DNA from: a virus
Taxonomy: Duplodnaviria; Heunggongvirae; Uroviricota; Caudoviricetes
Length of the DNA: 64,000 bases
Reading direction: 5' to 3' (one strand)
IMG/VR virus record: IMGVR_UViG_3300028379_000400
Coordinates: 1-64,000 of that record
Position numbers and translations under genes: made by a program. Shown in pieces: positions 13,312-55,919 of the stretch (positions are counted from its first letter, which is position 1; every line of letters starts with the position of its first letter). The notes beneath the pieces were generated by a model, which did not search any database, was not told where the DNA came from, and saw nothing but the letters and a program-made list of their open reading frames with translations.

Positions 13312-14424
13312 CTAAATCCTCATCGGCATGAGCACGAAGAGCGTGCTCGGATCGTCTTCGGCGAACAGGCGAGTTGGTGAGCCGGGCTCCGATACCGAGA
13401 TCGACACCTGCTTACCGCTGACGATGCCGAGGATGTCGTTGGCGTAGCGGGCGTTGAACCCGATCTCGAATGGCTCCGCCTCCCAGATCGCGTCCATGTC
13501 CTCGACGGAGTCGCCGTGGTCTGGGTTGGTGACGCTGATCTCGAGCTTGCCGGTTTCGAGCTTAAACTTGACGGCCTTGCCGCCGCGGTCTGAAGAGATG
13601 ACGGAGACCCGGTCGATCGCCGCTCGTAGATCGGACACCTTGACCGAAGCCACGGTATTGCTGAGGGCAGGGGTGACGCGCTTGTAGTCGGGGAAGGTGC
13701 CTTCGATCAGCTTCGACAGCAGCGAAACGCCGCCGATGGCGATGCGGATCTTGGTATCGGACACCTCGACTTTGATGTCGCCGCCGGCATCGAGAAGCTT
13801 GGAGATTTCGCCCACGGCCTTCCGCGGCACGATGATACCCGGCATGCCGTTCGAGCCATCGGGCGCCGGGCATTCGCAGCGGGCCATGCGATGGCCGTCG
13901 GTGGCGACGCCGCGCAGGACAGGCATGCGCTTCTCGTCCTCATCGACGTGCAGAAAAATGCCATTGAGGTAGTAGCGGGTTTCCTCGGTGGAGATGGCGA
14001 ACGCCGTCTTGGCGATGATGCGCGCCAGGTCGGCGGCCGGCATCGTGAACTCGTGAGTGAAGGTGCCGACCTTGAGGTCCGGGAAAGATTCTGGGCTCAG
14101 GATGTTGAGGCTGAAGCGGGACCGGCCGCTCTTGATGACGATATCATTCTCGCCGAGGGTGAACGTCAGCGCGCCTTCGGCGGCCTTGCGAACGATTTCG
14201 TGCAGGGTGCCGGCCGGGACTGTCGTCTTTCCGGGCGCATCGATGATCGCCTGCGCCGACTCCGTGATCTCGATATCGAGATCGGTGGCGCGCAGGGTGA
14301 TCTGGCCGTCTGCCGCGGTTATCAGGACGTTGGCGAGGATCGGATAGGTGTTGCGGCGTTCGACGACGCGGCTGACGTGGGCGACAACTTTGAGCAGCGC
14401 GGCGCGTTCGATGGTGAACTTCAT
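13312..14424 (-). CDS. dnaN: DNA polymerase III beta sliding clamp
   Basis: N-terminus MKFTIERAALLKVV...RRNTYPILANVLI and full-length three-domain clamp pattern. Confidence 0.85.
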   Translation of the reverse strand: MKFTIERAALLKVVAHVSRVVERRNTYPILANVLITAADGQITLRATDLDIEITESAQAIIDAPGKTTVPAGTLHEIVRKAAEGALTFTLGENDIVIKSGRSRFSLNILSPESFPDLKVGTFTHEFTMPAADLARIIAKTAFAISTEETRYYLNGIFLHVDEDEKRMPVLRGVATDGHRMARCECPAPDGSNGMPGIIVPRKAVGEISKLLDAGGDIKVEVSDTKIRIAIGGVSLLSKLIEGTFPDYKRVTPALSNTVASVKVSDLRAAIDRVSVISSDRGGKAVKFKLETGKLEISVTNPDHGDSVEDMDAIWEAEPFEIGFNARYANDILGIVSGKQVSISVSEPGSPTRLFAEDDPSTLFVLMPMRI

Positions 14425-27855: not shown

Positions 27856-28472
27856 TCCTTGCCGGCCTCGATATCGCGACCGTCACAGGCGTTGCCCTGA
27901 TGAAGGATGGGAAGATCACGACCCAGACCTTCCGAGCAGACGGCAAGAAGCGCTTCCTCGAGCGCGACGATGACAAGTCAATCGACGCAGTCCGCATGGG
28001 CATGGCGTTCCGCAGCTTCGAGGATTTCCTCACAGCCTTCCTTCTCAACAACTCGGTTGATGCCGTCGCGATCGAAGCGCCGCTCAACACCAATTTCCAG
28101 CGCAAGAAGCTGGTCACCAATGCCGATGCGATTTTCGCGGGGCAATCCAAGAACTGGGAAAATGTGGGCGGCGCCAGCTTGGCGACGTTCTTCAAAATCC
28201 ACGGGCTCGAGGCCGTTGCGCTGGCCGTGTGCACCCGCTGGAACATTCCGGCCGAGTTCGTCAATCAGGGGACTTGGCGCAAAGAGTTTCTCGGCAACGG
28301 CCGGCCAAAGGACCCCAAGAAGGAAGCGCGTCTCATGTGCATCCGGCTGGGGATTGAATGCACGAGCGACGATGCCGCCGAGTCCGCCGGTGTCGTGACC
28401 TGGCTCAACAACAAGCTCAATCCGTACGGCATCCGTCGGGCCAACGATCTGTTCAAGGCGGCGACCACATGA
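27852..28472 (+). CDS. RuvC-like Holliday junction resolvase
   Basis: MILAGLDIATVTG like RuvC N-terminus; ATGA coupling. Confidence 0.6.
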   Translation: MILAGLDIATVTGVALMKDGKITTQTFRADGKKRFLERDDDKSIDAVRMGMAFRSFEDFLTAFLLNNSVDAVAIEAPLNTNFQRKKLVTNADAIFAGQSKNWENVGGASLATFFKIHGLEAVALAVCTRWNIPAEFVNQGTWRKEFLGNGRPKDPKKEARLMCIRLGIECTSDDAAESAGVVTWLNNKLNPYGIRRANDLFKAATT

Positions 28473-29026
28473 CCCCGCACTGGACGGACAAATATACCCG
28501 ATCCCAGCTTGTTGCCGTCGTCCGTGTGATGGCGCGCGATGGAAAGTCGGCGAGCCAAATCGCCAAAGAAATAGGTCTCGGGGTCACCAAAAATATCATC
28601 ATCGGGCTCGTGAACACTTCGCGACCGCGGATCCAATTGCAGGGGCGCGGCGGCGCTGTCGACAAGGATGGCATGCCGCGTCCGAAGAAAGAGCCTTCAC
28701 CCGGGAAGACCGCGCCCAACAAGGTGCCTCGGGTTGCCGGCAAGCCGCTCAGCTTCATTATCCTGGACGAGGTCGCAACCTTCGACGCCGATCCCTCGCT
28801 GCACATCAGCGAGCTCGAACCCAAGGACGGGCGCTGCAGGTTTCCGCTGTGGCCGGATCGGATTGGAAACCTCGATCGGTCGCCGAAGCAATACGAGCTT
28901 CGATATTGCGGCAGGCCGACGATCGGCGACTCGAGCTGGTGCCCTGACTGTCGCAAGAAGGTCTACGCCGACCCGCTGCCACGCCCGGGGATGAATCTTT
29001 CTCAGTTCCGGTGGCGGCGTGGGTGA
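28469..29026 (+). CDS. gcrA: GcrA-like cell-cycle regulator homologue
   Basis: N-terminal WTDKYTRSQLVAVVRVMARDGKSASQIAKEIGLGVTKNIIIGLVN and C-terminal CRFPLWPD...YCGRPTIGDSSWCPDCRKKVY match GcrA termini. Confidence 0.7.
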   Translation: MTPHWTDKYTRSQLVAVVRVMARDGKSASQIAKEIGLGVTKNIIIGLVNTSRPRIQLQGRGGAVDKDGMPRPKKEPSPGKTAPNKVPRVAGKPLSFIILDEVATFDADPSLHISELEPKDGRCRFPLWPDRIGNLDRSPKQYELRYCGRPTIGDSSWCPDCRKKVYADPLPRPGMNLSQFRWRRG

Positions 29027-29441
29027 CGACAAGCATGCGCAAATTGCCAGCCTCACCACAGACCAAGTCATCGACGCCGTCCATTCGCTGCTGGACGAAG
29101 TCCGGCGTCTCACTATCGACCTCGGCTGGCCCGGCGTCTCTCTGGAGATGGCGCGCGAGAAGGCAAGAGCGTTCGCCGTCGCGCGCCGACACCTCGGATC
29201 AATGGTGGCCTGGCGCGAGGGGAAAAAGGGCGAAGCCCAGCTCGCAAGACTCGAGGCGCTGTTCGACCGTGTCGTCAAAAGCTCCGTCGTCGATGAGGCG
29301 AAGAACACGGTGACCTTCATCTTCTCTGCCGACGACGTGCCGCTGCTGCGGCGAGCCATGTTCGCCCTGATCGAATTCCAAATCATCAAGACCGCAGACG
29401 CCGAACGAGCCGGTCGCGGCAAATACAAGGGTAAGCGCTAA
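29019..29441 (+). CDS. hypothetical protein (140 aa)
   Basis: GTG start overlapping upstream stop. Confidence 0.4.
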   Translation: MGDDKHAQIASLTTDQVIDAVHSLLDEVRRLTIDLGWPGVSLEMAREKARAFAVARRHLGSMVAWREGKKGEAQLARLEALFDRVVKSSVVDEAKNTVTFIFSADDVPLLRRAMFALIEFQIIKTADAERAGRGKYKGKR

Positions 29442-31780
29442 TGACTGTCCATGCCCCGGAGACATTCCGCGAATTCGCAGCCGTTCGAGGTTTCGATCTC
29501 GACCACGAGCTGGTCGTCGATTGCTTCGCCGGCGGCGGCGGCGCCAGCGAGGGCATGGAAGACGCGATCCGGCGCCTGAAGGTGCTCGGCATCCTGCCGC
29601 TGAGCCGGCGCGCCAATGTCGACATCGCGATCAACCACGACGACAAGGCGATCGCCATGCACCTGGCGAACCACCCCAATACCATGCACGTCACCGCCGA
29701 TATCTGGACCGTCGACCCGCTGTCGGTCACAGGCGGGCTGCAGGTCGGCGCTGTGTGGGCATCGCCGGATTGTCGGCACCATTCCAAGGCCAAGGGCGGA
29801 CGGCCCGTGAGCGAGTCCGTGCGCGATCTGGCATGGGTCGTTGCCCATTGGTGCGAGCAGGTCCATCCGCGCGAAGTCTACCTCGAGAACGTCGAAGAGT
29901 TTCGGGACTGGGGCCCGCTGGTTTCCGATGGCGCCGGCGGCATGCGACCGAACAAGCTGCAGAAGGGCGCCACATTCAAGCGCTGGGTCCGCAAATTCAA
30001 GGCAATGGGCTATCGCGTCGAATGGCAGGAGCGGCGCGCGAACCTCTGGGGCGTGCCGACAATCCGGAAGCGCCTCTACATCATGATGCGCAATGACGGC
30101 GAACCGATCGTCTGGCCGCCTGAAACGCACGCCGACCCGAAGTCTGAGGAAGTAGCGCGCGGCGAAAAGCAGGCGTGGCCGATTGCCGCCGACATCATCG
30201 ATTGGGATCGGCCGTGCCCATCGATCTTCCTGACGAAAGCCGATGCTCGGGAGCTGCGGCGGTCTGCTGGCATCTCGATCATCCGTCCGCTGGCTGACAA
30301 TACCCACGCCCGGATCGCGAAGGGGATCAAGCGCTATGTCCTCGATCGCGCTTCGCCGTTTATCGTGACTTGCAATCACGCCGGCGAATTTCGCGGCCAG
30401 TCGATCGACGCCTCGTTCAACACCGTTGCGGCGGCGCGCGATGCCCACGGCGTCGTGATCCCGAGCTTGATTAGCGTCAACCATGGAGACAGCGGCGGCC
30501 GGCGCGAATATGGGGTCGATGAGAGCTTTGGCACCGTCGAGACGGCGCCGAGCAAAGGGCTAATCGAGGCCCACATCGCGCCGAGCATTGTCGGCGTCGG
30601 CGGCCGAATGGGGCAATCGGGGCCGCGCTCCGTCGAAGCTCCTTGGCACACCGCGACAACAAAACCCGACAGCGCGATCGTCGCGCCGTACCTCGTTCCT
30701 CGCTATGGCGAGCGTGACGGCCAGGAGCCACGCACGCTGCCGATCGACGGATCGACGCCGACAATTGTCCCTACTGGTAATGGCGCCGGGATTGCCGCAG
30801 CGGAGCTGGCCCCGTTCATTACACATGGCCAGCATGGCGGCCGCTCGCGCGGCGCCGACGAACCGCATCACACAGTCGAAGCGTCGACCAAAGACACCAA
30901 TCAGGTCGCCGCGGTCTACCTGGCGCAGCACAACGAGAATCGCATTGGCGTTCCGGCCGATGGCTCCATGCCGGCGGTAACGACGCGAGGGACGCAAACA
31001 CAGCAAGTCGCGGCCTTCTTGGCCCAGAACAACACGGACATGGTCGGCCACGATCTCCGGGAGTCGACTTCCACGATCGTCGGCAAGGGGTCGACGCAAT
31101 CTTTCGTCGCCGCTTCGGTCATCGAGATGCATGGCAAATCCGGCGCGCGGCCAGTTGATGCCCCGGCGTCATCGCCAACGACGAAGAGCACGCCTGGCTT
31201 CGCTGCTGCGCACATGATCTCGTTGAAGGGGAGCGATCGCCGAGCCTATGGCGCCGACCGGCCCGTTGAGGCAATCACTGCGGATGGTCAGCATGCGGGC
31301 GTCGTGACGCTGCCCCTGATGACCGCCTACTACGGCTCCGATGAAGTCGGTGGCGCCGAAGATGCTCCGGTTCGCAGCGTAACCTCAAAGGCTCGCTTCG
31401 GGCACATCGAAGCCACTGCGGCCGCGCCGCCGCTTACCGACAGCCAGTTGGCCCGCGCCCGCCAGGTCGCAGATTTCCTGCGCGCCTATGGGTGCTGGGA
31501 CGACCGCGAATTCGTGACCGTCGGCCAATGGGTAGTCATTGATATCGGCATGCGGATGTTGACGCCGCGCGAGCTCGCCAGGGCCCAAGGCTTCAGCGAC
31601 AGCTATGTGCTGGCCGCGCCGTACAACGGCAAGACGCTGACGGAGACCGATCAGCGGCACAAGATAGGCAACTCAGTGTGTCCCGCGATGGCGGCATCCC
31701 TGTTCATGGCCAACTACAGGCCGAAGCCCCGGGCCGCGAATTCGCCCGATCAGGGCTGGCTGCTGCAGAAGGCGGCCTGA
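29441..31780 (+). CDS. DNA (cytosine-5)-methyltransferase with expanded repeat-containing variable region
   Basis: motif I DCFAGGGGASEG, motif IV SPDCRHHSKA, motif VI LENV, motif X IGNSVCP; about 10 tandem 30-38 aa units between motifs VIII and IX. Confidence 0.8.
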   Translation: MTVHAPETFREFAAVRGFDLDHELVVDCFAGGGGASEGMEDAIRRLKVLGILPLSRRANVDIAINHDDKAIAMHLANHPNTMHVTADIWTVDPLSVTGGLQVGAVWASPDCRHHSKAKGGRPVSESVRDLAWVVAHWCEQVHPREVYLENVEEFRDWGPLVSDGAGGMRPNKLQKGATFKRWVRKFKAMGYRVEWQERRANLWGVPTIRKRLYIMMRNDGEPIVWPPETHADPKSEEVARGEKQAWPIAADIIDWDRPCPSIFLTKADARELRRSAGISIIRPLADNTHARIAKGIKRYVLDRASPFIVTCNHAGEFRGQSIDASFNTVAAARDAHGVVIPSLISVNHGDSGGRREYGVDESFGTVETAPSKGLIEAHIAPSIVGVGGRMGQSGPRSVEAPWHTATTKPDSAIVAPYLVPRYGERDGQEPRTLPIDGSTPTIVPTGNGAGIAAAELAPFITHGQHGGRSRGADEPHHTVEASTKDTNQVAAVYLAQHNENRIGVPADGSMPAVTTRGTQTQQVAAFLAQNNTDMVGHDLRESTSTIVGKGSTQSFVAASVIEMHGKSGARPVDAPASSPTTKSTPGFAAAHMISLKGSDRRAYGADRPVEAITADGQHAGVVTLPLMTAYYGSDEVGGAEDAPVRSVTSKARFGHIEATAAAPPLTDSQLARARQVADFLRAYGCWDDREFVTVGQWVVIDIGMRMLTPRELARAQGFSDSYVLAAPYNGKTLTETDQRHKIGNSVCPAMAASLFMANYRPKPRAANSPDQGWLLQKAA

Positions 31781-32124
31781 TGCACCAAGCGATATTCGCC
31801 GCACTGCGGCAACACCGCTTCTCGTTGCACGATGAGAAGGCGATGCAAGCCGAGATGTTTAGCGTCCTCGTCGCCGCCGGGTTTGAGGCGGAACGAGAGG
31901 TTGTGCTCAGCGACGCCGATCGCATCGACATTTTGGTCGGGACTGTCGGCATCGAATGCAAGATCAAAGGCCAGCGTCGCGCCATCTATCATCAGGTCGA
32001 GCGCTATGCCCGGCATGATCGCATCTCAGCGCTGATACTTGCCACCAACGTTGCTATGGGCATGCCGCCCCAGCTTAGCGGCAAGCCGGTTCTCGTTCTC
32101 AATCTCGCGAGGGCGTGGCTCTGA
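31780..32124 (+). CDS. PD-(D/E)XK nuclease-fold protein (VRR-NUC/Vsr-like?)
   Basis: DADRIDILVGTVGIECKIK = D-x(n)-E-x-K; immediately downstream of C5-MTase. Confidence 0.35.
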   Translation: MHQAIFAALRQHRFSLHDEKAMQAEMFSVLVAAGFEAEREVVLSDADRIDILVGTVGIECKIKGQRRAIYHQVERYARHDRISALILATNVAMGMPPQLSGKPVLVLNLARAWL

Positions 32125-46381: not shown

Positions 46382-47644
46382 CTAGACCCGCATGGGCATA
46401 AGGACGGCCAGCCAGCCTTCGCGGCCTTCGCCGGTCACGACAGTCGGCGAACCAGCGTCATTGAACAGCATGGTCACTTCGTCGGAACGGGCCTCGGTAA
46501 CCAGGTCGGTGAGATAGCGGGCATTGAAGCCGATCTCGAACGACTCCGGCATTTGCTCGCCCGGGACGATTGCGAGGGGTACGGCCGACGATCCCATGTC
46601 GGGGTTGTTGCAGATCAGCGTGAGCTTGCCGCCCTCGAACGAAAGTTTGACCGCCTTGCCGCCGCGTTCCGATGCCACCAGCCCGGCCGCCTTGATCGCG
46701 GCGAGAGCGTCGGCGGCCTTGAACGTGACCGCCTTGTCATTGTTTTTCGGCGTGACACGCTCGTAATCGGGGAATGTTCCATCGATCATTTTGGACGTGA
46801 CTGTCACGCCATCCCAATGCAGCCGCATGAAGCGCTCGTGGACCTCGATTTCGACGGTCTCCGGCCGCGCCTTGCCCTTCATGAGCTTCACCAGAAGGGC
46901 GACCGTCTTTTTGGGGATGATGATGCCCGGCATGCCGATTGCGCCGTCTGGCGCCGTGATTTCGCTTCTCGCCATGCGATGGCCGTCAGTGGCCGTGCAG
47001 CGAAGCTCCGGCCGGTTGCGACCCGACGGCGTGACGACGTGCATATAGACGCCATTGAGATAGTACCGGGTCTCCTCATTTGAGACCGCGAACTCGACGG
47101 CGTCGAGCGAGTCAAAAAGCTCGATGCCAGAGAGGCTGAAGCGGTGCGTGAACTCGCCGGGCTTCAGTGCCGGGAACCCTTCTGACGGCAGAGCCGCCAT
47201 CTGGTAAGTGGCCGTGGCGAAATCGACATCGACCGCGCCGTCGAACGTGATGATGGTTTCCGTCGCGTCGGGGACGTTCTCGCCCTTCTCGATATCGAAT
47301 TTCCAACGCGTGACGCGTTCCACGGCCTTGGACGGTGGCATGGTGAAGGCGACGTATTCGGCCTTGGGCGCGCCCTTCAGCAATTGCTTCAGCATCAGCG
47401 CTGGCACGGTCACGTCGAACCGCTCATCGGCCGGCGCGGGCACGGCAACGTCGATCACGATATCGAGGTCGGTGCTCGTGACGAAAAGCATGTTGCCGTC
47501 GCCGCGAAGGCGGACGTTGGCAAGAATGGGGTAGGTGTTGCGACGCTCAACGATCTCCTCCGCGATCTCGACGGCGCGAGTCAGGGCGACGCGGTCGGCG
47601 ACGGCGGAAGCAAGGGCAGCGGAAGCAAGGGCAATGGCGGTCAT
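46382..47644 (-). CDS. dnaN: second DNA polymerase III beta sliding-clamp homologue
   Basis: RRNTYPILANVRL, three-domain clamp pattern, C-terminal LMPMR; leader motif upstream. Confidence 0.8.
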   Translation of the reverse strand: MTAIALASAALASAVADRVALTRAVEIAEEIVERRNTYPILANVRLRGDGNMLFVTSTDLDIVIDVAVPAPADERFDVTVPALMLKQLLKGAPKAEYVAFTMPPSKAVERVTRWKFDIEKGENVPDATETIITFDGAVDVDFATATYQMAALPSEGFPALKPGEFTHRFSLSGIELFDSLDAVEFAVSNEETRYYLNGVYMHVVTPSGRNRPELRCTATDGHRMARSEITAPDGAIGMPGIIIPKKTVALLVKLMKGKARPETVEIEVHERFMRLHWDGVTVTSKMIDGTFPDYERVTPKNNDKAVTFKAADALAAIKAAGLVASERGGKAVKLSFEGGKLTLICNNPDMGSSAVPLAIVPGEQMPESFEIGFNARYLTDLVTEARSDEVTMLFNDAGSPTVVTGEGREGWLAVLMPMRV

Positions 47645-48917: not shown

Positions 48918-50483
48918 TTACCAGCGGCGCGTCTTGCCGATGGTGAGGATGACGGTGTTGACGTTGGTGCCGACTTCGGAGAAGGAACCGGCCGGAAGGT
49001 CGCGGAAGTCGCCGCCGCGTTCCTCAACGAGTTTGCGGAAGGCGATTGCCTTGCGCGTCTCGCGGAACTCGGTGCCAGCCGACATGATCGCTACAAGAAT
49101 GCCGTCGGGCTTAAGGAATTTGAGGGCGTGCATGACGTGGTCAATGTCGCGTTCGCGGTCAAATGGCGGGTTCATCACAACCCGGTCGTAATGGCCGGTT
49201 GTCGCAGGATCGAGGCGCAAGAAATCCATATTGTAGACGCGCCGGTAGATGCCTTCGATTTCGAGGGCGCCAGCAAGGTGTGGCTGAATCTCGACGCAGT
49301 CGACCGCGTTGTCCCAGCGGTAGTGTCGCAGATATTCCTCAAGGTGCTCGGCGCGCCTTGAATAGTTCGCCGTTACGGCTTCTGCATCGCGGAGGCAGTG
49401 GCGTGCTAGGTTGCCGGTCCCAGCGCTCGGCTCGAGGATCGTCAATTGAGGCTCATCGATTTTCTGCATAAGCGGTAGATGGTGGAATAGCTCAGAGACC
49501 GCCCGCTCTGGCGTTGGGAAGAATCCGTAGCGCTTCGCCGGGGTGGTTTTGATATCGGCAAATGGGTCCGCCTCTTGCTCCCGCCCGTCGCCGATGACCT
49601 CGCCGTACCATTCCGCCAAAAGCTTATTGACCTTCTCCACCAGGTCGCGGCGCTGAAACCACAAATGGGCATTGCCATTCATGAATCCCTTGATCCGAAA
49701 GTATTCGGTTTCGACCTCGCTTTGCCGCGGGCCGCGGGTATGACGACGGTCGTTCTCAAGCTCACCAAGAGCGGACCGGAACGATGCTTCTGGCTTGCCG
49801 TCGAGGACAGCGAAGACGCGCTCGATATCCACCAGTTGATCGCGGATTGAGCCGTATTTCAAACCGCCGCCGAATGGTCCGACATCGAAGGCGTAGGTTA
49901 GGATGATGCGCGAACCAACCTTAAAGCCGTCGTGCGACCGGAAGCGCCGATCCAGCTTGGAAAAGACGTTGGAGATGCCGCGCCGGAAGATATTGCCGCT
50001 ATCGGCCACGAAGGCCTCAATGGTGGCCTGCACGTTCTCGACGGTGAATGGTGGAAGGCCCTTGGCGATTTCGTCGCCGTTAATCAATTCGCCGTCGCGG
50101 CTGACGCGGTCAGGCACATAGGCCATTTGTTGACGCAACTTATCCTTGGCTTCCTTGTCCATCAGGCGCTCCAGGTCGGTGCGTTCAATGGTGTAGGCCC
50201 ATGCGTTGACGTCCAGCAGCTTGCGAGCGGTCCGCAAGTAGCGGTCGCGATCCGGCAGTGTGACCGCCGAATGAAACGCGCTGATTTCCTCGACATGCTC
50301 GTAGTTGTAGTTGTTGAGCCCTTCGGCGCTGCCCGGCCGCACGTTGCGGGCCATGTCGTCGGCCTCGCCGATGGCGGCGGCGGCCTCTGCGATACGGTCG
50401 TAGGCAGTGCTGTACAGGACAAGCGCCTGGTCGCGGGCGGCGGCGATTTGTTCGATGGTGGCGCGGGGGACGATGGCGTTCAT
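48918..50483 (-). CDS. DUF4942-type orphan DNA methyltransferase (N6-adenine class)
   Basis: FFPTPERAVSELF, ILEPSAGTGNLA (motif I), VMNPPFDRE (motif IV NPPF); leader motif upstream. Confidence 0.7.
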   Translation of the reverse strand: MNAIVPRATIEQIAAARDQALVLYSTAYDRIAEAAAAIGEADDMARNVRPGSAEGLNNYNYEHVEEISAFHSAVTLPDRDRYLRTARKLLDVNAWAYTIERTDLERLMDKEAKDKLRQQMAYVPDRVSRDGELINGDEIAKGLPPFTVENVQATIEAFVADSGNIFRRGISNVFSKLDRRFRSHDGFKVGSRIILTYAFDVGPFGGGLKYGSIRDQLVDIERVFAVLDGKPEASFRSALGELENDRRHTRGPRQSEVETEYFRIKGFMNGNAHLWFQRRDLVEKVNKLLAEWYGEVIGDGREQEADPFADIKTTPAKRYGFFPTPERAVSELFHHLPLMQKIDEPQLTILEPSAGTGNLARHCLRDAEAVTANYSRRAEHLEEYLRHYRWDNAVDCVEIQPHLAGALEIEGIYRRVYNMDFLRLDPATTGHYDRVVMNPPFDRERDIDHVMHALKFLKPDGILVAIMSAGTEFRETRKAIAFRKLVEERGGDFRDLPAGSFSEVGTNVNTVILTIGKTRRW

Positions 50484-50528
50484 AGCAGGGACTCCGAGAG
50501 CGCCCATGATCGGGCAAAGGGCAAGCGG

Positions 50529-53433: not shown

Positions 53434-54852
53434 CTAGAGCCGCCCGATATAGACCGGGTCACCAAAGGGAACGGCGGCGGCGAGGCTGGCGAATTTTCGG
53501 CTATCGCCATGCGTTGCCCAAAGGACCGGGCAGGCAGGCTCCTCCCCAAAGTCACTAACCTCTAGGTCGGTTAGGTAGACAACGGCGCTGGCGTCCGGGG
53601 CGTTGGCCTCGATCCACTCAAAGGTATTGCGGAAGGCGGTGCCGCCGCCGCCCGCTAGCGTCAATTCTACGGTATCGCCAACCGTGAACTCGGCGACGCT
53701 GCAAACCCGCGTGTCTGCCATTAGGACGGTAAGCCGGGCAAACTTGCCGGACTCCATCGCGCCGACAATTTCGGCGGCGGCGTTGTTGACCATGTCGGCG
53801 GTTATCGAACCGGACGTGTCGACGGCAAAGACGACATGCGACAAGCCGTCGACAACAGCGCCGGGCAAATACACGCCAGCGTGCACAAAGCGGCGATTGG
53901 GGCGGGCAAACGAATAGTCGAATGACACGCGGGAATCGATCCAGTTCGCCAGCAAGTCGCGCCAATCGGCAACGGGCGTTGCAAGGTCCGTCACAAGCTC
54001 TTGCAGATAGCCCGGAACGCTTCCGGCTTGCGCCTTGGCGACGTTGACGGCTTGGCGGGTCCAAACCTGCCATTGGTCGGCGCTCGCCTCGCTTTCCACC
54101 TGCCCGCCTTCCGGTGCGATAACCCCGCCCATGCCGTGCGCGTCGCGGCTATCGTTCCCCGGCGCTGGCGCGCCTTCCGGCTGGCCTTCCGCGCCGCCGC
54201 CTTGTGACTGCCCGTCCGGCTGGCCAGCGCCTTCAGCGCCCGCGCTATCGCCGCCGCCTTCCGCGTCACCCTCGCCCGCTTCGCTATCTGCGCCAGCGTC
54301 TCCCGGTTCGGACGCGTCGCCCTCGCCAGCGTCGGCGGTCTCGCCGTCGCCCGCCTCGCTTTCGCCTTGTCCGGATTCGCCCTGGCTGGCGTCCGCCTCG
54401 CCGTCGCCCTCTTCGGGTTGCTCTTGCGGTTTGGTCTCGGCGGCAGTCAACAGGGCGTAAACCTCTTCCGCGCCCATGCCACGAAATGCCGGGTCCAAGA
54501 GCATACCGCGCGGCATGGTGAACCCGGCCGCGATCAGGTCGGGATTGATGCAATAATCAGCCGCCCGGTTGAAGCGCTCAAGGTCACGGTTGCCAATGCG
54601 GGCATGGTGACGATAGGCGCAATGCGAGACCTCGTGCGCGACTAGGAAAATGCATTCCGCCTCGCTTAGGCTTTCGATAAAGGCGGGCGCGTAGAAAAGG
54701 GACGCGCCGTCGGTCGCCATTGTGGCCGTCTTGTCCGGCCGTGCCGCCACGGCAAGGTGTAGGGCGAGGCAACCATAAAACGGTTGCGACGTGACTAGCC
54801 GGGTCCGCGCCAAGGTCACGCGGTCGGCGGCGTTGAGGCCTTGCCAGTTCAC
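53434..54852 (-). CDS. VWA-domain protein with N-terminal HExxH metallopeptidase-like domain (DUF2201-type)
   Basis: HEVSHCAYRHH; MIDAS VVFAVDTSGSI; acidic Gly/Glu/Asp linker; GTG start overlapping MoxR stop. Confidence 0.7.
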   Translation of the reverse strand: MNWQGLNAADRVTLARTRLVTSQPFYGCLALHLAVAARPDKTATMATDGASLFYAPAFIESLSEAECIFLVAHEVSHCAYRHHARIGNRDLERFNRAADYCINPDLIAAGFTMPRGMLLDPAFRGMGAEEVYALLTAAETKPQEQPEEGDGEADASQGESGQGESEAGDGETADAGEGDASEPGDAGADSEAGEGDAEGGGDSAGAEGAGQPDGQSQGGGAEGQPEGAPAPGNDSRDAHGMGGVIAPEGGQVESEASADQWQVWTRQAVNVAKAQAGSVPGYLQELVTDLATPVADWRDLLANWIDSRVSFDYSFARPNRRFVHAGVYLPGAVVDGLSHVVFAVDTSGSITADMVNNAAAEIVGAMESGKFARLTVLMADTRVCSVAEFTVGDTVELTLAGGGGTAFRNTFEWIEANAPDASAVVYLTDLEVSDFGEEPACPVLWATHGDSRKFASLAAAVPFGDPVYIGRL

Positions 54853-55853
54853 AGCGTCACCGCCTGATTACGGTGCGCCCAGTCCACATAAGCGCCGGTC
54901 TCGCAAAGCGCCTTGTCCCGCTTCACCGCGTCAACGGCGGTTACAATCTCGAACTCTTTCGGCAGGCGGCGGGCATAGGCCAGCACGTTGTCAAACGTCG
55001 TCACGCTGGCTTTGCGGGCGAGGGCGGTTGATACCGCGTAAAGCGCCGACGGGTTTGACGGTACGGGCGCGCCGTGCGGGTCCGCTATGATTGCCTCTAG
55101 CCGGGGAAGCTCTTCCGCGATTTCCGCAAAGGCTTCAAATTCGGCGGCGACGGTATCGCCGACTAGGCCAGCTATCAGGGCATGCCGGACGGCAAGCGGC
55201 TGGCCAACAAACTTGGCGGCGCGTTCCCATGCCCGTGGCGACGGGAAGGCTAGTTCATCGGCTGGCGCTGGCGTGGCGCGGTCCATCGTTTCGACGTGTA
55301 GCAGCGCCGGGCGGAATTTGAGAAACCCGGCTATCAGCGGATGAACGCCAGCCGTTGCCGCCCATGCCTGCCATGCCTCGGGATCAACCGCGACGTTCAG
55401 GTGTAGGAATCGATTGGCCAGCGCGCCCGAAATCTTGTTTGTGCCGGTCCGGTCGGTTTTGCCGTTGCCCGCCGCAATGACGCGCACGCTATCGGGGAGG
55501 GCATGCTCGCCAATGCGCCGATCTAGGACGATTTGCAGCGCCGCCGCCATGACGGCCGGACTCGCCCGGTCCATTTCGTCAAAAAACAGGATTGTTTCGC
55601 GCGACGGGTCGGACGGCCAAATTGCCGGTTTCAGCCAAACCGTTTCCCCGTTCACGGCGGCGGGCAAGCCGCGCAAGTCGACGGGGTCAAACATGCTCAA
55701 CCGGATATCGGCCAGCGTCGCGCCACGCCGCTTGGCAAGGGCCTTGATAACGTCCGATTTGCCTACGCCCGGCGCGCCCCAAACAAAGGGCGGGACGTTG
55801 GCGTCTAGGGCGGCGTTGACAGCCTCAACAGCGGCGGAAAGCTTCAGTTTCAT
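54849..55853 (-). CDS. MoxR-like AAA+ ATPase
   Basis: Walker A VWGAPGVGKS, Walker B ILFFDEMDRA; leader motif upstream. Confidence 0.75.
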   Translation of the reverse strand: MKLKLSAAVEAVNAALDANVPPFVWGAPGVGKSDVIKALAKRRGATLADIRLSMFDPVDLRGLPAAVNGETVWLKPAIWPSDPSRETILFFDEMDRASPAVMAAALQIVLDRRIGEHALPDSVRVIAAGNGKTDRTGTNKISGALANRFLHLNVAVDPEAWQAWAATAGVHPLIAGFLKFRPALLHVETMDRATPAPADELAFPSPRAWERAAKFVGQPLAVRHALIAGLVGDTVAAEFEAFAEIAEELPRLEAIIADPHGAPVPSNPSALYAVSTALARKASVTTFDNVLAYARRLPKEFEIVTAVDAVKRDKALCETGAYVDWAHRNQAVTL

Positions 55854-55919
55854 AGTGGGACTCCACATTGCGCACTAGCGCGCGTCACGCCGCCGGGCGA
55901 ACCGGCGGCGACACTCGTG

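Follow-up and report, generated by a model that had tools for sequence, protein, structure and literature searches.

The stretch of DNA analysed here (hereafter the window) comprises 64,000 nucleotides (nt), positions 1 to 64,000 of the IMG/VR virus record IMGVR_UViG_3300028379_000400 (Caudoviricetes). On its plus strand, at 29441..31780, it carries a gene for a C5-cytosine DNA methyltransferase (MTase) of 779 amino acids (aa), in which a long array of short tandem units separates the two parts of the catalytic core. The ATG start shares 1 nt with the upstream stop codon (TAATG) and the stop codon shares 1 nt with a downstream ATG (TGATG), i.e. the gene is translationally coupled to both neighbors via 1-nt overlaps. 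The protein matched Pfam, NCBIfam-type and PHROG families. The Pfam match (PF00145, E=6.9e-19) fell into two separated parts, one N-terminal (aa 25-224) and one at the C-terminal end. TIGR00675 (dcm) was also matched, and the phage-family search returned phrog_116 (E=4e-80) as well as phrog_23072, which covers aa 313-570.

Motif positions were determined by regular expressions and by alignment to M.HhaI, for which a sequence identical at 327/327 positions to PDB 10mh/1mht was used. The C5-MTase motifs I (FAGGGG, aa 29-34), IV (SPDC, aa 108-111, with the catalytic Cys111), VI (ENV, aa 149-151), VIII (TIRKR, aa 207-211), IX (RMLTPRELARAQGF, aa 705-718), and X (GNSV, aa 743-746) were all present in the canonical order, with a gap of about 490 residues between motifs VIII and IX. 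The N-terminal catalytic part (29441..30343, plus strand; aa 1-301) holds motifs I, IV, VI, and VIII together with a helical framework specific to the family (aa ~226-301). The C-terminal catalytic part (31415..31777, plus strand; aa 659-779) holds motifs IX and X and a conserved helix, PPLT..Q..A..VA.FLR. Both parts were modeled by AlphaFold2 at a predicted local distance difference test (pLDDT) score >90, and Foldseek matched the model to DNMT1, MET1, HhaI, and HaeIII with E down to 6e-15; these matches speak for the catalytic core alone, because the array was modeled at pLDDT<50. The 779-aa protein is thus a C5-cytosine DNA methyltransferase, as predicted from motifs, Pfam, and Foldseek.

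The array consists of ten tandem units of 32-43 aa each and occupies aa 302-658 (nt 30344-31414), between motifs VIII and IX. Smith-Waterman alignment of non-overlapping sub-segments of the insert gave z=6.9, with 0/500 shuffles scoring equally high, and ungapped BLOSUM autocorrelation peaked at lags of 35-37, 75-76, and 113. A BLASTP self-comparison of the MTase returned the identity match only. To delimit the units, a generic unit hidden Markov model (HMM) iterated over 120 homologs was used, which found exactly 10 units in the window MTase. At the DNA level, the repeat search of the array yielded short two-copy matches of 13-18 nt only, i.e. at chance level. The repeat is therefore visible in the protein only, and an origin of the units by recent duplication or slippage is ruled out. 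The original prediction for this stretch, made from the letters alone, had described about 10 degenerate units between motif VIII and motifs IX/X, each with a hydrophobic core, a Gly, and P-x-x-T-x-T. The Smith-Waterman, autocorrelation, and HMM analyses agree with this description, and the five units given there as examples were correct; the array had been placed at 30340-31390, but it extends slightly beyond 31390 and its actual limits are 30344-31414.

A family search by word index returned at least 7,994 significant matches among the 8,000 candidates listed; among the matches listed, the closest relatives were found in Devosia. The window is of metagenomic origin, and scanning reference genomes for exact matches to it returned none. 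All cassette analyses are based on the 120 best homologs of this family, which contain 937 units. Units were assigned to types as Louvain communities by similarity, and two clusters with within-protein duplicates were sub-split by similarity alone. Single-linkage clustering was dropped, as it chained all units into one component. In total, about 20 cassette types were resolved. The units of the window MTase fell into nine first-pass clusters and, with R and E separating on sub-splitting, into ten types, so that its architecture, B-Q-L-D-A-R-E-T-C-I, comprises ten units of ten types.

These units, all on the plus strand, are (i) unit 1, type B (30344..30448, aa 302-336; HMM span aa 304-336), which is the first unit in 98/120 homologs; (ii) unit 2, type Q (30449..30568, aa 337-376; HMM span 339-371), with the signature SVNHGDSGGRREY and present in 18/120 homologs; (iii) unit 3, type L (30569..30673, aa 377-411; HMM span 379-410), GVGGRMGQS..R...TTKPD, in 32/120; (iv) unit 4, type D (30674..30802, aa 412-454; HMM span 414-448), LVPRYGERxGQEPR...PT.VP.GNG, in 79/120; (v) unit 5, type A (30803..30901, aa 455-487; HMM span 457-485), APF..GQHGG.SR...P.HTV.AS.KD, in 110/120; (vi) unit 6, type R (30902..31000, aa 488-520; HMM span 490-519), LAQHNxNRIG...PaPTVTTRGTQ, in 14/120; (vii) unit 7, type E (31001..31099, aa 521-553; HMM span 523-553), LAQNNTxxxGH...STIVGKGxTQ, in 63/120; (viii) unit 8, type T (31100..31195, aa 554-585; HMM span 556-584), AAS.vEM.GrS.AR, in 12/120; (ix) unit 9, type C (31196..31303, aa 586-621; HMM span 588-618), AAHM.SLKGSDRR, in 86/120; and (x) unit 10, type I (31304..31414, aa 622-658; HMM span 624-654), TAYYGS...RT.T.K.RFG.

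All unit types share one scaffold, with the family consensus aPfl..GG..G..deP..TvT, into which the consensus of the original prediction fits. Residues that are invariant within a type were grouped in two segments, at profile columns 6-16 and 22-32, e.g. RYGERxGQ (D), MTMRNsgkP (H), SLKGSDRR (C), and STIVGKGxTQ (E). At type-specific positions, 64% of residues were R, K, Q, N, H, D, E, S, T, or Y (43-46% in the background), whereas scaffold positions were almost only P, T, and G. This distribution suggests that the two polar segments may act as DNA-reading loops on a common frame.

With the unit HMM, 3-12 units per protein were found among the homologs, and protein length tracked the number of units (r=0.85). 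Paralogous units within the window MTase were on average 29% identical, compared with 48-65% for units of the same type in other proteins. In 600 random pairs of proteins, identity was 59.3% for the cassettes that both had and 59.7% for the catalytic core. A low-complexity linker, which the original prediction had named as the finding that would speak against it, is ruled out, because the cassettes are conserved to the same degree as the core. Duplicates of a type within one protein were not observed at all in the 120 proteins (0, against 191 ± 10 expected from type frequencies); in the coarse first-pass clustering there were 64 (271 expected). One copy per type, which supports a multispecific enzyme, would be expected if a further copy brought no gain.

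The order and choice of cassettes changed rapidly. The 120 proteins displayed 101 distinct architectures, and even among pairs with 90-100% identical cores only 13% had matching architectures. Near-identical pairs differed by swaps or deletions of whole cassettes, with breakpoints at unit boundaries and the rest of the protein 97-99% identical. Examples are P0003 and P0004, which differ by a swap between Q and H, and P0079 and P0108, which differ by a swap between L and H, by a precise 32-aa loss of T (in P0108), and by a divergent O allele. Structure does not dictate one order of cassettes, since 40 of the 215 co-occurring type pairs were found in both orders. Positions were fixed for the first unit (B or S) and the last unit (I, J, P, or U), and the internal types varied in presence. 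Units 1 (B) and 10 (I) of the window MTase are therefore probably framework, the last one alternatively a junction to motif IX, which leaves about 8 variable cassettes.

The architecture is common. The unit profile, searched against 1.84 billion representative proteins (clusters at 50% identity), had 3,144 matches at E<=1e-3, of which 1,962 reached E<=1e-10; the largest number of units in one protein was 13. All matches that were checked (9/9) were C5-MTases; the short ones were N-terminally truncated fragments, and some carried inteins. Inteins (Hint / LAGLIDADG / Intein_splicing) were seen in several family members, namely the homologs P0116, P0241, and P0185, in P0116 at the catalytic Pro-Cys of motif IV. 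Loci carrying the family were found in Alpha-, Beta-, and Gammaproteobacteria, Firmicutes, Planctomycetota, and Desulfovibrionaceae, and had 4-11 units (median 7), with one locus having none. For the family as a whole, the median was 7-8 units and the maximum 12-13. The ten units of the window MTase are thus in the upper tail of a common architecture and no outlier; the array, announced as unusually large, is so relative to the multispecific Bacillus-phage enzymes (3-4 signature motifs), but not within its own family. Homologs with 5-9 units of the same alphabet also occur in cultured phages, i.e. Paracoccus Pyei1, Mesorhizobium P1, Sinorhizobium phi2LM21, Burkholderia BgManors32, Aeromonas ARM81mr, and Escherichia phage Eeyore. 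By tblastn, the homologs in Pyei1, ARM81mr, phi2LM21, RcapNL and others were 33-38% identical over 94-97% of the query; Pyei1_p05, with 8 units, was 36% identical to the window MTase over 95% of its length.

Published assays are available for some members of the protein family to which the window MTase belongs. Its described members (JCM7686_0772, JCM7686_2655, Pyei1_p05, ARM81mr_p29, and phi2LM21_p23) share the cassette alphabet and the location in replication or early modules, but have other cassette sets (5-9 units) and, in the accessible literature, have been described only as enzymes of 'relaxed specificity'. MTases of this kind, about 700 aa long and forming 5-methylcytosine (5mC), are widespread (Decewicz et al. 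2017, PMC5537653). JCM7686_0772 and JCM7686_2655, from P. aminophilus prophages, are ~69% identical to Pyei1_p05 (PMC6536676); both were expressed in E. coli and found to be active (Dziewit et al. 2014, PMC3925955). Sixteen restriction endonucleases were partly blocked, at sites including AGCT, GGCC, CCGG, CCNGG, CCWGG, CCSGG, GCGC, and GCGCGC as well as GCN7GC, GCCN5GGC, CAGN3CTG, CAGCTG, RGGNCCY, ACGT, and CTCGAG, and 12 others cut fully, including those recognizing CGCG, ACGCGT, TCGCGA, CCGCTC, CCATGG, CCWWGG, and GGNNCC (PMC3925955). With plain GpC or CpC methylation, protection would have been expected at several sites that were cut completely, which speaks against such a specificity. The mosaic of protection appears to fit several discrete motifs, each of which coincides in part with some of the restriction sites. 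The TET-associated GpC phage C5-MTases (PMC8256090) were judged a different group, being short and dinucleotide-specific.

Taken together, the window protein is probably an orphan, mobile-element C5-MTase of the multispecific type. We favor this reading because the array sits at the position of the target-recognition domain (TRD), because the unit types are distinct, conserved, and non-redundant, because relatives exchange cassettes, and because homologs are broadly, if partly, protective. Multispecificity through tandem TRDs, as had originally been proposed, is the best-supported reading after these tests; we infer it for the window protein, as we do its activity and the correspondence of one cassette to one specificity. 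The protein would comprise a single catalytic core (motifs I-VIII and IX-X) interrupted at the TRD position by ten modules of ~35 residues. Each module would provide a scaffold of a short hydrophobic strand, a Gly-rich loop, and D/E-P-x-x-T-h-T, plus two type-specific segments for reading DNA. B and I would serve as framework and Q, L, D, A, R, E, T, and C as alternative mini-TRDs, each internal cassette directing the common core to a short DNA motif of its own. The resulting 5mC at many unrelated sites would pre-empt many cytosine-sensitive restriction systems on entry into a new host, and the protection spectrum would be altered by gain, loss, or swap of whole cassettes through recombination at unit boundaries. 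More tentatively, and with somewhat less than even confidence, we propose that ~20 or more autonomous mini-TRDs of ~33 residues form a combinatorial code, that the window MTase methylates roughly eight unrelated motifs, and that cassette exchange is an arms-race mechanism operating across phyla.

The closest known parallels are the multispecific C5-MTases of Bacillus phages (M.SPRI, M.Rho11sI, M.H2I, M.Phi3TI; also M.BssHII). These enzymes, too, are phage-borne orphans, in which one core is combined with several short modules arranged in tandem within the variable region that separates motifs VIII and IX; presumably, they serve to protect against several restriction systems. The signature T-[IL]-[TS]...G occurred three times in SPR, four times each in rho11s and H2, at a spacing of 30-48 aa, and once in the monospecific M.HhaI. 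The unit consensus ..deP..TvT.., followed by Gly in many types, matched T-[ILV]-[TS]...G at the level of the pattern. In the Bacillus-phage enzymes the specificity of each module has been established, whereas in the family of the window MTase it is inferred. Further differences are the 3-4 signature motifs of these enzymes against 10 units here (3-13 in the family), the alphabet of ~20 cassette types in more than 100 architectures, the motif IV sequence (SPDC here, PCQ in the Bacillus-phage enzymes), which marks a different core lineage, the large extra helical framework, and the hosts, which are here mainly Proteobacteria but also Firmicutes and others. M.HhaI (PDB 1MHT/10MH) shares the catalytic fold and the motif order; it has a single TRD of ~80 aa instead of ten units of ~35 aa, and the layout of this TRD (hydrophobic strand, Gly-rich loop, T250-L251, Gly run) resembles that of one unit. 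TRD shuffling in type I HsdS follows the same evolutionary logic, in that separate recognition modules are recombined to diversify specificity while the catalytic machinery stays constant. It involves other proteins, another fold, and another chemistry (N6-methyladenine), however, and HsdS uses its two TRDs jointly, whereas here many would serve as alternatives.

Multispecific phage C5-MTases as such are already known. The family of the window MTase departs from them by the lack of detectable module homology, the far larger number of modules, and the alphabet of ~20 types with rapid turnover, an architecture that is new as far as could be checked. The accessible literature on these MTases did not mention a repeat or cassette architecture; the primary paper on ARM81 (J Gen Virol 2016) and the mapping of TRDs in Bacillus-phage enzymes (EMBO J 1996) lay outside its scope and may contain it.

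Several observations weigh against a multispecific enzyme with independent TRDs. Cassette order was biased (e.g. A before D, 61:15), and some structural constraint must therefore exist. The unit HMM gave best domain scores of -0.8 to -5.2 bits against SPR, rho11s, and H2 (independent E-values 0.3-3), no significant alignment to M.HhaI, and, as a profile against all PDB sequences, no match at E<=10. As no significant module homology was detected, the identification of the units as TRDs rests on position, pattern, and analogy. The likeness to SPR-type enzymes noted in the original prediction accordingly extends to position and to the periodic T-[IL]-[TS]...G pattern and not to module homology, so that the array can be said to work like these enzymes rather than to be a member of their group. 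With ~33 aa, the units are also at or below the size of the smallest known TRDs that have been delimited experimentally. In the AlphaFold2 model of the window MTase (alignment of 86 sequences), the whole array (aa 311-660, nt ~30371-31420) remained at pLDDT<50, as did the unit region (aa 293-400) of the 3-unit relative P0078 (50 sequences). For neither protein did AlphaFold2 provide a fold for the units or a sign of autonomous domains. The low pLDDT of an array that is as conserved as the core may come from alignments that are shallow or gappy, from folding that requires DNA, or from cassettes that exclude one another in docking. Finally, protection by the assayed homologs was only partial and was interpreted by the authors as 'relaxed specificity', not as multispecificity (PMC3925955), which they later worded as 'at least one C in the CC motif'; and phi2LM21_p23, with 6 units, was inactive in E. 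coli (PMC5537653).

The main rival is a single enzyme of relaxed specificity, in which the ten units form one large composite DNA-binding domain that recognizes a very short or degenerate motif and the cassettes tune affinity, processivity, or flank preference. It would account for the partial protection at every protected site of the homologs, for the biased order, and for the fixed first and last units. We nevertheless regard it as unlikely: a composite domain predicts neither the single copy of each type (0 duplicates, 191 expected) nor a range of 3 to 13 units per protein, nor the occurrence of 40 type pairs in both orders, nor clean single-cassette swaps in backgrounds that are 97-99% identical. 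A simple GpC or CpC rule is also hard to reconcile with the full cleavage at CGCG, CCGCTC, CCATGG, CCWWGG, and GGNNCC in the presence of the homologs.

Less probable still is that one or two cassettes are active TRDs and that the others are inactive relics or spare parts for recombination. 'Pseudo-domains' or pseudo-TRDs have reportedly been described by the Trautner group in Bacillus-phage enzymes, and the existence of a 3-unit homolog, B-M-U (P0078), indicates that few units suffice for a complete protein. Relics should decay, however, whereas every cassette type is conserved like the catalytic core between proteins of ~60% identity and has its own invariant polar residues. That the cassettes are protein-binding linear motifs or flexible arms, directed at host factors, decoyed restriction enzymes, or parts of the replisome, with target recognition located elsewhere, is very improbable: it would agree with the unstructured AlphaFold2 model, with a composition rich in G, P, and polar residues, and with the position of the gene in a replication module, but the region between motifs VIII and IX offers no further candidate TRD, the unit was found at the TRD position of C5-MTases only (9/9 profile matches checked), and the scaffold P-x-x-T-h-T...G is typical of C5-MTase recognition loops.

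If the window MTase and its relatives are indeed multispecific, the mini-TRDs would be the smallest sequence-reading modules known for any DNA methyltransferase, and about eight unrelated motifs would be more than for any characterized DNA MTase. Exchange of whole cassettes would represent a fast, previously undescribed arms-race mechanism of phages and mobile elements in several bacterial phyla. If one cassette corresponds to one specificity, the family would constitute a lookup table from peptide modules of ~33 aa to DNA motifs. The family is very common, with thousands of clusters, and occurs in many cultured phages, among them phages of E. coli, Klebsiella, Burkholderia, and Rhizobium. Multispecific methylation has been recognized for 40 years in a small number of Bacillus phages; it would prove to be a widespread anti-restriction strategy, developed here much further than in those phages. 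Such knowledge would help to predict the resistance of phages to restriction systems, which matters for phage therapy and host range, and to interpret 5mC methylomes, 5mC being largely missed by PacBio sequencing. It would also provide a basis for engineering programmable cytosine methyltransferases and would account for the puzzling 'relaxed specificity' reported for homologs. The natural, near-isogenic cassette-swap pairs make the multispecific hypothesis directly testable.

The MTase gene lies in a replication module with genes for a GcrA-like protein, a RuvC-like resolvase, an SNF2-type helicase, a primase, and DnaB, and no restriction enzyme partner of the C5-MTase was evident in the element. 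An antisense open reading frame (ORF) of 348 aa (29438-30484, minus strand), wholly inside the MTase gene, is most likely spurious, as open frames of this sort often arise in DNA with 62-64% GC. Immediately downstream is a 114-aa ORF (31780-32124, plus strand) with a match to phrog_5928 (function unknown, E=4e-32) and a D...ECK pattern. It had been put forward as a PD-(D/E)XK protein, possibly a Vsr-like mismatch nuclease, which we could not substantiate: among Pfam families the sole match was PDDEXK_4 at E=0.032, below the cut-off, no Vsr match appeared even at E<=10, NCBIfam and PDB sequences gave no match, and the ORF adjoined the MTase gene in 0/10 relatives examined.

The element carries four methyltransferase-type genes, including that of the C5-MTase. 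A Dam-like gene (PF05869; 24239-24979, plus strand) and an MT-A70 gene (PF05063; 24976-25701, plus strand) are located about 4 kb upstream of the C5-MTase, and the C-terminal half of a DUF4942 protein (48918-50507, minus strand) matches phage 'DNA methyltransferase' PHROGs. N6_N4 or MT-A70 MTases also adjoin the C5 gene in the relatives L013, L014, and L003. The gene that lies two positions upstream of that for the MTase (28358-29026, plus strand; called gene 28469-29026, corresponding to L001 5029-5586) encodes a GcrA-like protein (PF07750, E=4e-8). The order GcrA-like protein, small ORF, C5-MTase recurs in the closest relative (L013 2869-3618). In Caulobacter, GcrA is a methylation-sensitive cell-cycle regulator, and the GcrA-like copy beside several MTases may link gene expression of the element to its DNA methylation state. 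A gene of the PAPS-reductase family was found just upstream of the C5-MTase homolog in L002 (3848-4939) and L011 (1-526), i.e. in a Rhizobium leguminosarum prophage and Escherichia phage Eeyore, which could be a sign that some lineages have a second DNA-modification partner that recurs.

We also noted two genes for the DNA polymerase III beta subunit (sliding clamp) in the window, at 13312-14424 and 46382-47644, both on the minus strand; the latter is more divergent and has an N-terminal extension. Furthermore, a DUF2201 metallopeptidase/VWA-like protein (53434-54852, minus strand) and an ATPase (phrog_1297; 54849-55868, minus strand) are encoded side by side and look like a two-gene module of the MoxR/VWA type.

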